This document shows positions 2,922-2,973 of a stretch of 64,000 nt of DNA, in pieces. The notes under the pieces were generated by a model. That model was not told the origin of the DNA. It made no database searches and saw nothing but the letters and a program-made list of their open reading frames with translations. A program made the position numbers and the translations under genes. How positions within the stretch are numbered: the stretch's first letter is position 1; the number at the start of each line of letters is the position of its first letter. The DNA is from Giardia intestinalis (Eukaryota), in assembly GCA_000002435.2 (NCBI GenBank), contig CM018793.1; one strand, 5' to 3'.

Positions 2922-2973
2922 CTATCATACTATCACCCTCTATCACACCATTGTACAGCATTCACTACCCAAG
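2922..2973 (-). repeat. inter-unit spacer U0/U1 (52 bp): U1 poly(A) signal, degenerate CTATCAC heptamers (GTGATAG on coding strand), then in-frame TAG before the U0 body
   Basis: Plus actatcatactatcaccctctatcacaccattgtacagcattcactacccaag. Coding strand ...AATGGTGTGATAGAGGGTGATAGTATGATAGTGGAGTGAG. Confidence 0.85.
2960..2966 (-). terminator. polyadenylation signal AGTGAAT of U1 (Giardia-type AGTRAAY), within ACTTGGGTAGTGAAT overlapping the stop TGA
   Basis: Plus attcact 2960..2966. On the coding strand TGACTTGGGTAGTGAAT begins with the stop codon at 2976..2974. Matches the ACTYAGRTAGTRAAY motif known after VSP stops, with one mismatch. Confidence 0.75.

Follow-up and report, generated by a model that had tools for sequence, protein, structure and literature searches.

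We found a degenerate GTGATAG repeat at all 14 junctions of a head-to-tail VSP array of Giardia lamblia WB, where it is the non-coding linker of a VSP "linear array", that is, of silent, 5′-truncated, promoterless and start-less cassettes. We lean towards reading this linker as a slippage-prone non-coding filler, a part of the array unit that was inherited at duplication and partly homogenised with its flanks. The tract is real, and describing it contributes a modestly new detail, of modest significance, to a structure that was known: a 2010 paper had already presented the array, its ~60-bp spacers, the lack of an Inr and the cassette hypothesis. Added to the known arrays are the 8/10-bp repeat, its C-free composition, its unit-step lengths and its frame-closing stops. 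The GTGATAG motif itself appears to be undescribed; full-text literature searches for GTGATAG/CTATCAC with Giardia gave only unrelated papers.

The array and its junctions

The window, by which we mean the whole 64,000-nt stretch that was analysed, has real sequence only at 1-33,195 (33,195 bases), with N at 33,196-64,000. The array fills all 33 kb with units on the minus strand, in two length classes of about 1.8-2.15 kb and about 3.1 kb; the 33 kb contain 14 CRGKA-stop tails and 14 spacers, all on one strand. A translated unit matches Giardia VSPs, homologues of which carry Pfam PF03302, and its top match, at 99% identity, is XP_001705784.1 (a G. lamblia ATCC 50803 VSP). The old WB RefSeq models P0050 (XP_001705783.1) and P0093 (XP_001703933.1) have exact coding matches in the window, which is therefore a G. 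lamblia WB scaffold containing VSP cassettes only. The features of a VSP linear array are present throughout: units lie head to tail across 14 junctions with spacers of 49-80 nt, every unit end carries the CRGKA-stop tail and the extended VSP poly(A) signal (ACTYRGGTAGTGAA...; both 14/14), and the bodies have neither the PyAatgTT initiator nor a usable start. YAATGTT, the form in which this initiator was searched, is absent from both strands of the whole window. Nine of the 13 complete bodies are open, start-less frames, over 578-1023 codons, and pairwise dN/dS between cassettes is 0.25-0.43 at dS 0.2-1.5; the cassettes have therefore diverged like coding sequence and not like decaying pseudogenes.

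Such arrays are known from the same organism and with identical structure, often on short or unplaced contigs. Adam et al. (2010) (BMC Genomics 11:424, PMC2996952) describe VSP linear arrays in which the intervening regions average 60 bp, the extremes being overlap and 241 bp, and the downstream members have no Inr; these were proposed to be unexpressed recombination cassettes. A 2022 preprint on cysteine-rich proteins (10.1101/2022.03.07.483299) reports pVSP arrays on unplaced scaffolds and an extended PAS; about 327 extended poly(A) sites have been reported. Spacer composition is not mentioned in the accessible parts of these two sources.

The layout is common to all 14 junctions: the CRGKA stop is followed by a 25-nt poly(A) block, the C-free tract, TGA-TAG and the next body (Table 1). 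ACTYRGGTAGTGAATGCTRTACAATG opens every spacer (14 occurrences, 0 expected), and the 25-nt block CTTRGGTAGTGAATGCTRTACAATG stands at every spacer start; with the preceding A, it was found 14 times against 0 expected. According to the 2022 preprint (10.1101/2022.03.07.483299), the extended VSP poly(A) signal is ACUUAGRUAGURAAYRY and cleavage in Giardia usually falls 13-15 nt from the AGURAA hexamer. Counted from AGTGAA, this rule therefore places the predicted 3′ end of the upstream unit at ..GCTGTACA (..TACA|ATG) and gives a predicted 3′ UTR of 22 nt. An ATG directly follows the predicted cleavage site, and the tract begins 3 nt past that site. The body starts TGG AGT G(A/T)G ATA TGC ACA (W-S-E/V-I-C-T) and aligns with an internal "PGSEICT" that comes after the GGCY motif of full-length VSPs; the cassettes therefore lack about 110-130 N-terminal codons, the signal peptide included. 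Stop codons are found in all three forward frames in 13 of the 14 spacers.

Table 1. Positions in the window of the focal junction's features and of the 14 array spacers
Feature	Position	Strand	Remarks
Focal spacer, 52 nt	2922..2973	-	3′ UTR/poly(A) block and GTGATAG tract, between unit stop and next body
Stop codon TGA of upstream unit	2974-2976	-	
CRGKA-stop tail of upstream unit, TGCAGGGGGAAGGCGTGA	2974..2991	-	
Extended VSP poly(A) block CTTGGGTAGTGAATGCTGTACAATG with AGTGAA hexamer	2949..2973	-	conserved 14/14
C-free tract GTGTGATAGAGGGTGATAGTATGATAG	2922..2948	-	3 cores, spacings 10 and 8 bp
Last TGA-TAG of focal tract	2922-2927	-	in frame with body
Start-less VSP body downstream	1..2921	-	begins W-S-E-I-C-T; runs past contig end
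Spacer, 72 nt	4837..4908	-	5 cores; two extra ~10-nt units
Spacer, 51 nt	6772..6822	-	3 cores
Spacer, 63 nt	9877..9939	-	4 cores, every spacing 10 bp
Spacer, 61 nt	11692..11752	-	4 cores
Spacer, 61 nt	14825..14885	-	4 cores
Spacer, 61 nt	16620..16680	-	4 cores; variants GTGATAA, GTAATAG
Spacer, 51 nt	18436..18486	-	3 cores
Spacer, 61 nt	21539..21599	-	4 cores; left half 18487 type, right half 14886 type
Spacer, 51 nt	23451..23501	-	3 cores; left half 14886 type, right half 18487 type
Spacer, 51 nt	26574..26624	-	3 cores
Spacer, ~70 nt to TGGAGTG	28484..28553	-	degenerate 3′ copies GAGATAG, GTGATG; next body frameshifted
Spacer, 49 nt	30381..30429	-	3 cores, spacings 8 and 8 bp
Spacer, ~59 nt to TGGAGTG (53 nt to last GATAG)	32521..32579	-	degenerate copies

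Several other identities were considered for this sequence and rejected. Giardia-type introns carry the splice signals GTATGT ... CTRACACRCAG; these are absent from the spacer, and splicing would in any case leave no signal peptide. Nor does the tract replace signal-peptide codons ahead of a mature protein, since the bodies begin at "PGSEICT", ~110-130 codons in. The miR2 target site consists of the last 20 coding nt and 10 nt of 3′ UTR, which puts it outside the tract (PMC2583053).

The repeat and its occurrence at other VSP loci

GTGATAG was found 35 times against 3.0 expected, a count unmatched by any shuffle, and 33 of the 35 lie inside spacers; for RTGATAR the array gives 74 against 8 expected. 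A tract is 32-55 nt long and holds 3-5 T(G/A)ATA(G/A) cores, and the spacing between cores (n=35) is 10 bp in 22 cases, 8 bp in 12 and 11 bp in one. In six of the 14 spacers TRF detected repeats, imperfect at about 81-95% matches, with periods of 10, 18 and 20. The tract is a tandem repeat in that short units lie head to tail and copy number differs between paralogues; the repeat is GTGATAG plus 1-3-nt linkers, in 3-5 copies in this array and as many as about 7 at other loci. On the coding strand the tracts have no C in 575 nt, and of all C-free runs in the array, the 14 longest are exactly its 14 spacers. Spacer lengths are 49, 51 (four times), 52, 53, 61 (four times), 63 and 72 nt, plus one frameshifted case, and unit-sized indels of about 10 nt (GGGTGATAGT, GTGTGATAAT) separate junctions that are otherwise similar. 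The 14 spacers are paralogous copies and therefore cannot count as that many independent observations; what exceeds chance is the repetition inside each spacer and the recurrence in unrelated contigs.

The initial annotation, which first drew attention to this sequence, had described an array of VSP cassettes, and the CRGKA tails, PF03302 matches and exact WB models bear this out. Its coordinates, 2922..2973 (+), delimit exactly the 52-nt spacer from the unit stop to the first open codon of the next body. The proposal that the last GATAG supplies the in-frame stop also holds: in 13 of the 14 spacers the final TGA-TAG lies in frame immediately before the first body codon, and its TAG is the last in-frame stop. 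A length-polymorphic unit boundary had been proposed as well, and agrees with the indels of about 10 nt. The heptamer tract described after the poly(A) motif is there as a degenerate repeat at 14/14 junctions, but the heptamers do not abut, their cores being 8 or 10 bp apart. Spacer lengths agree in 12 of 14 cases and differ in two. Tabulation per spacer gives 3-5 clear cores where 3-7 copies had been claimed, and two extra units (about 20 nt) in the spacer at 4837..4908 where about three had been claimed.

Occurrence of the same tract at other VSP arrays had been set as a check, and it was found both in metagenome contigs and in other WB gene models. Three independent metagenome contigs (L003, L008 and L009) have GGTGATAGNN repeats after the poly(A) block, about seven copies of them in L008; the bodies in these contigs align partially with the window, at about 77-82% identity at best. 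Their tracts enter the body at no fewer than three points that differ from the window's. In L003 and L009 the tract is joined directly to GATATGCAC, while in L008 it is joined further upstream, at ..GLLFIGGCYKTESQPGSEICT (..GLLFIGGCY), and also to a 70-aa C-terminal fragment. Four WB models (P0003, P0009, P0011 and P0119) start "MLYSDSDS(DS)AMWCGGDSDS...LLFMGGCY", in which "SDSDS" is the translation of GATAGT repeats from an ATG inside the poly(A) block (gaATGctgtac); the tract is therefore present in other WB arrays. It is neither a read-through nor an assembly artefact.

Solo or decayed VSP genes served as negative controls, taken from L001 and L007 (GS), L002 (DH), L005 (metagenome), and L006 and L010 (P15). 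None of the eight non-array VSP genes in this set (three in L007 and one in each of the others) has the tract in its 3′ flank, although the poly(A) signal is kept there and the sequence is GT-rich and C-poor. Nor does the tract occur at the one P15 junction sampled or at three head-to-tail junctions of the assemblage-B type (L001, L004, L011), in which the upstream VSP is cut within the transmembrane helix and followed by a conserved ~75-nt linker and a signal peptide with its ATG replaced. Judged on this handful of non-WB loci, the tract is thus not general to Giardia VSP loci. A scan of JGI metagenome contigs gave no matches to the conserved VSP tail.

Exchange in and around the junction

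The array is a pronounced mosaic. Distances between junctions were taken from a pairwise aligner for 300-nt windows of the upstream body (A, B), the last 135 nt before the stop (C) and three successive 300-nt windows from the start of the next body (D, E, F). Distances are correlated between A and B, in the 3′ half of the unit (rho 0.54), as against rho -0.09 between B and D, across the spacer; the adjacent body windows D and E are equally uncorrelated (rho -0.03). Retention of near-identity is lowest from C to D, where only 0.17 of the pairs near-identical in C are still so in D, compared with 0.53-1.0 at the other window boundaries in the same direction. Among 17 pairs with near-identity upstream, the point of collapse lies at -106 to -100 (5), in the spacer (6) or at +96 to +214 (5). 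At 21600 and 23502 the tracts join left and right halves of the 18487 and 14886 types in converse ways, and from their sequences these two haplotypes look like reciprocal recombinants. Blast identity tracts ending -133 from the stop were rejected as a breakpoint cluster, being a contig-end artefact.

A Hudson-Kaplan four-gamete analysis over -140..+200 gave at least 19 events, of which 7 fall in the tail CDS, 1-2 in the poly(A) block and 11 in the head; none is forced into the tract, where just 3 informative sites are gap-free. Given the shared ancestry of the pairs, few real events stand behind such counts. Because the signatures are spread over the spacer and, just as often, the flanking coding sequence, we place the exchange in and around the junction, and a repeat-specific hotspot is not demonstrated. 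The initial annotation had suggested a recombination hotspot at the tract; similarity between units does break most often across the junction, but collapse points range from -106 to +214, the four-gamete events are scattered and D and E are uncorrelated. On its question whether conversion tracts start or stop at spacers, 6 of the 17 collapse points fall within the spacer.

Origin and role of the tract

Nucleotide diversity rises from 0.042 (poly(A) block) and 0.045 (head, first 18 nt) to 0.084 at third positions within the final 20 codons and 0.20-0.25 in head codons. In the tract it is 0.147, plus the ~10-nt indels, which therefore makes the tract the least constrained part of a conserved junction island. 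Folding of the two strands gave no RNA structure (z -0.48 to +0.16), and no Rfam family matched over the 33 kb.

As a filler, the tract would have been copied along with each unit duplication, and its length would shift as slippage adds or removes ~10-nt units. It would be altered further by the gene-conversion or unequal-exchange traffic that makes the whole array mosaic, and partly homogenised along with its conserved flanks. The two evident effects are passive: the tract closes the frames between cassettes and belongs to a homology block (3′ end, poly(A) block, tract and head) in which misaligned units could pair. We infer both the slippage mechanism and the absence of a sequence-specific function. 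The ~10-nt indels, the high tract diversity, the varied entry points, the absence at non-array flanks and at assemblage-B-type junctions, the lack of RNA structure and of an Rfam match, and exchange signatures that do not cluster in the tract all support the filler. Against it, the GTGATAG cores are well kept although the bodies are ~77-82% identical at best and synonymous divergence reaches 0.4-1.5; a neutral stretch of 35-55 nt should decay unless homogenised, which calls for either constraint or concerted evolution. One turn of the DNA helix matches the predominant spacing of 10 bp, which would fit sites on one face, and unit similarity breaks most often across the junction, where two haplotypes resemble reciprocal recombinants; these points too count against a filler.

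Functionally, the nearest counterparts would be repeats that bound silent antigen cassettes of other pathogens. The 70-bp repeats of T. brucei are short, degenerate and copy-number-variable and lie just upstream of silent VSG genes, whose conserved 3′ end is the other homology block. It is rather improbable that the Giardia tract is a recombination boundary element of this kind, a 5′ cassette edge at which breaks, pairing or conversion begin, with the conserved 3′ end as the other edge, and that cassettes are shuffled or copied into expressed VSP genes between the two. The likeness is one of position, at the upstream edge of the cassettes in all 14 junctions, and of variable copy number; there is no sequence similarity, the tract of only 32-55 nt is much shorter, and a role as conversion boundary is only an analogy. 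A boundary would accord with the low retention of near-identity across the junction (0.17 against 0.5-1.0), with the 6 of 17 collapse points within the spacer, with the converse combinations of two parental types at 21600 and 23502, and with the differing body entry points to which other arrays join the tract. The coding (non-template) strand is G-rich and C-free, and dN/dS of 0.25-0.43 with 9/13 open bodies would suit a reservoir in use, a hypothesis also raised by Adam et al. (2010). However, the 19 four-gamete events extend evenly over the tail CDS, poly(A) block and head, none of them needing to fall in the tract, windows inside bodies are just as uncorrelated (D-E rho -0.03), and the pairs compared are not independent and reflect few real events. 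The sampled junctions of P15 and of the assemblage-B type do not have the tract, and VSP switching in G. lamblia, unlike that of T. brucei, is not known to involve DNA rearrangement, PMC2996952 describing it as epigenetic and without such rearrangement. Repeat-centred endpoints define the 70-bp type and are not established here, and we have therefore not filed the tract as a boundary repeat. A stronger version, in which the tract would be an active recombination joint, fragile or R-loop-prone and "switch-like", where silent cassettes are cut, paired and copied, strikes us as very unlikely; its analogues would be immunoglobulin switch regions and the trypanosome 70-bp repeats, and it would provide a DNA-level route to mosaic antigens on top of epigenetic or RNA-based switching.

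A gene-start relic would concern the origin of the tract and is compatible with the filler reading; we consider it possible, if unlikely. ACAATG with TGTGATAG would be the initiator, ATG and first signal-peptide codons of a founder VSP (caATG TTG TTG ATA Gcn, M-L-L-I-A), later amplified by slippage, after which a deletion would have fused the repeat to an internal point of the body. Functional-type P15 5′ ends read caATGTTGTTGATAGC (L006:9722, L010:1395), to be compared with acaATGTGTGATAGAG in 11 of the 14 spacers, and MLLIA is the commonest N-terminus among the full-length matches. The ATG lies right at the upstream unit's predicted cleavage site, so the spacer would be 3′ UTR plus gene start with no intergenic DNA, and the head GTGAGATATG resembles the repeat and could offer microhomology for the deletion. 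Yet CGATG(A/G)GG also occurs in non-array VSP 3′ flanks, at equal distance from the poly(A) hexamer, and the ATG may therefore simply be part of the conserved 3′ flank. Other WB arrays have GATAGT repeats on both sides of CAATG (the "MLYSDSDSAMWCGGDSDS" models), and the resemblance was spotted post hoc and requires two 1-nt gaps.

That the tract acts as a downstream polyadenylation or termination element, a G/U-rich, C-free stretch that aids 3′-end formation or blocks read-through, seems highly improbable. It consists of G, T and A only and begins 3 nt past the predicted cleavage site (13-15 nt from AGTGAA), and non-array VSP 3′ flanks are likewise GT-rich and C-poor. GU-rich elements show no enrichment in G. 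lamblia, however, where canonical motifs are depleted and CstF candidates are low-confidence or ambiguous only (Bilodeau et al., 2022, PMC9014877). Expressed non-array VSPs do without the repeat, and cassettes without promoter or start leave little to terminate. Scarcely credible is a phased protein-binding array or chromatin boundary, with WGATAR sites on one helix face that silence or insulate the cassettes; the initial annotation had proposed a protein-binding site because the coding strand carries GATA. TGATAG and TGATAA do fit the WGATAR consensus, 10-bp spacing is dominant (22/35 intervals) and cores vary less than the linkers between them, but part of this low variation stems from the alignment itself, in which cores are paired with cores. 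The 8-bp spacing of 12/35 intervals breaks the phasing, a full-text literature search found no report of a Giardia GATA factor, and the tract is absent from the sampled junctions of other lineages.

Short conserved sequences also bound head-to-tail silent cassettes in Pneumocystis MSG (the CRJE) and in Borrelia vls (17-bp direct repeats). Giardia cassettes resemble both in lying head to tail, without expression signals and next to a short bounding sequence; the CRJE and vls repeats differ in being single, well conserved and proven in recombination into an expression site, whereas the Giardia tract is a variable repeat. The vls cassettes are summarised in PMC11499132. In G. muris, telomeric tandem arrays of psiVSPs are untranscribed and have no signal peptides (Xu et al., 2020, PMC7641422); phylogenies there hint at exchange between them and intact VSPs, and the same paper raises the reservoir hypothesis. 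These arrays belong to another species and have the tail GCRGK, and PMC7641422 contrasts G. intestinalis with G. muris with respect to telomeric arrays.

If the tract guided cassette exchange, it would bear on whether antigen diversification draws on the start-less VSP copies as a working reservoir, an idea to which dN/dS of about 0.3 and the mostly open cassettes lend some indirect support. Its practical use is as a precise landmark: the extended poly(A) block with the GTGATAG repeat delimits silent VSP cassettes, can guide the assembly and typing of arrays that are hard to assemble, and helps to mend gene models that start at the poly(A)-block ATG and read "SDSDS".

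Coding character and shuffling of the start-less cassettes

We found the reading frame uninterrupted in nine of the 13 complete start-less bodies on the minus strand (window 1-33195), with lengths of 578-1023 codons. Pairwise divergence among these nine gives dN/dS of 0.25-0.43 at dS of 0.2-1.5, and is thus of coding type, even though the bodies lack an ATG, the PyAatgTT initiator (Inr) and a signal peptide. Such divergence is compatible with a reservoir that would swap sequence with expressed VSPs. Four other bodies are decayed copies, because each stays open for only a short distance before its first interruption.

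Sequence is also shared between units in a modular fashion. In five units the 3′ part, upstream of the unit stop, is one near-identical module (distance ≤ 0.01 over 600 nt or more), and the heads of the units that follow it differ. Short conserved coding motifs, for example TGTGCACTGCTTGTAA, are further sites of module shuffling in the window array. The predicted miR2 target of VSP mRNAs comprises the conserved last 20 coding nucleotides and the first 10 nucleotides of the 3′ UTR (Saraiya and Wang, 2008); by position, the silent cassettes also retain this conserved segment at every junction in the window.

Positions 33196-64000 of the window are all N, which leaves a scaffold of 33,195 bp as real sequence. 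This scaffold both starts and stops inside VSP units, and therefore both ends of the array lie out of view.

Features of the window array and of VSP loci used for comparison; window units are identified by the position of the stop codon at their junction
Feature	Location	Strand	Remarks
Uninterrupted bodies	after stops at 26625, 23502, 18487, 16681, 14886, 11753, 9940, 6823, 4909	minus	
Early-interrupted bodies	after stops at 32580, 30430, 28554, 21600		open for 79, 268, 81 and 190 codons, respectively
Units sharing the 3′ module	junctions 30430, 23502, 18487, 11753, 6823		
Retained predicted miR2 target segment	2964-2993		example
Alternative VSP-VSP junction	L001:11780-11900, L004:1690-1790, L011:4080-4160		assemblage-B-type loci
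Annotated 'MGGCY...' VSP proteins	L006:9722-10060, L010:1395-1700		P15, assemblage E

The linker in WB gene models

Five old G. lamblia WB protein models (P0003, P0009, P0011, P0119 and P0006) take as their start an ATG within the poly(A) block or within the GTGATAG-repeat tract itself, read the GATAGT repeats as 'SDSDS', and then continue into a VSP body. These models are annotation artefacts; their sequences show that other WB arrays contain this linker too.

Junctions and interrupted genes in other assemblages

The assemblage-B-type loci (L001, from GS, L004 and L011) carry an alternative conserved junction, at which the upstream VSP is cut within its TM helix (..GISV[T/A]KSSP..stop) and is followed by a linker of about 75 nt, in which CTATCAC occurs once and in the reverse orientation. 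A signal peptide (LLAIYL..) lies 3′ of this linker, its start codon replaced (CAAT-CTCMGYG-TTG). The 'MGGCY...' proteins of the P15 loci L006 and L010 stem from calls at an internal Met of full-length VSP genes. In these genes the caATGTTGTTGATAGC start and the signal peptide are intact, yet the N-terminal part that carries them is severed from the body, in L006 by an in-frame stop (TAG) and in L010 apparently by a frame disruption.
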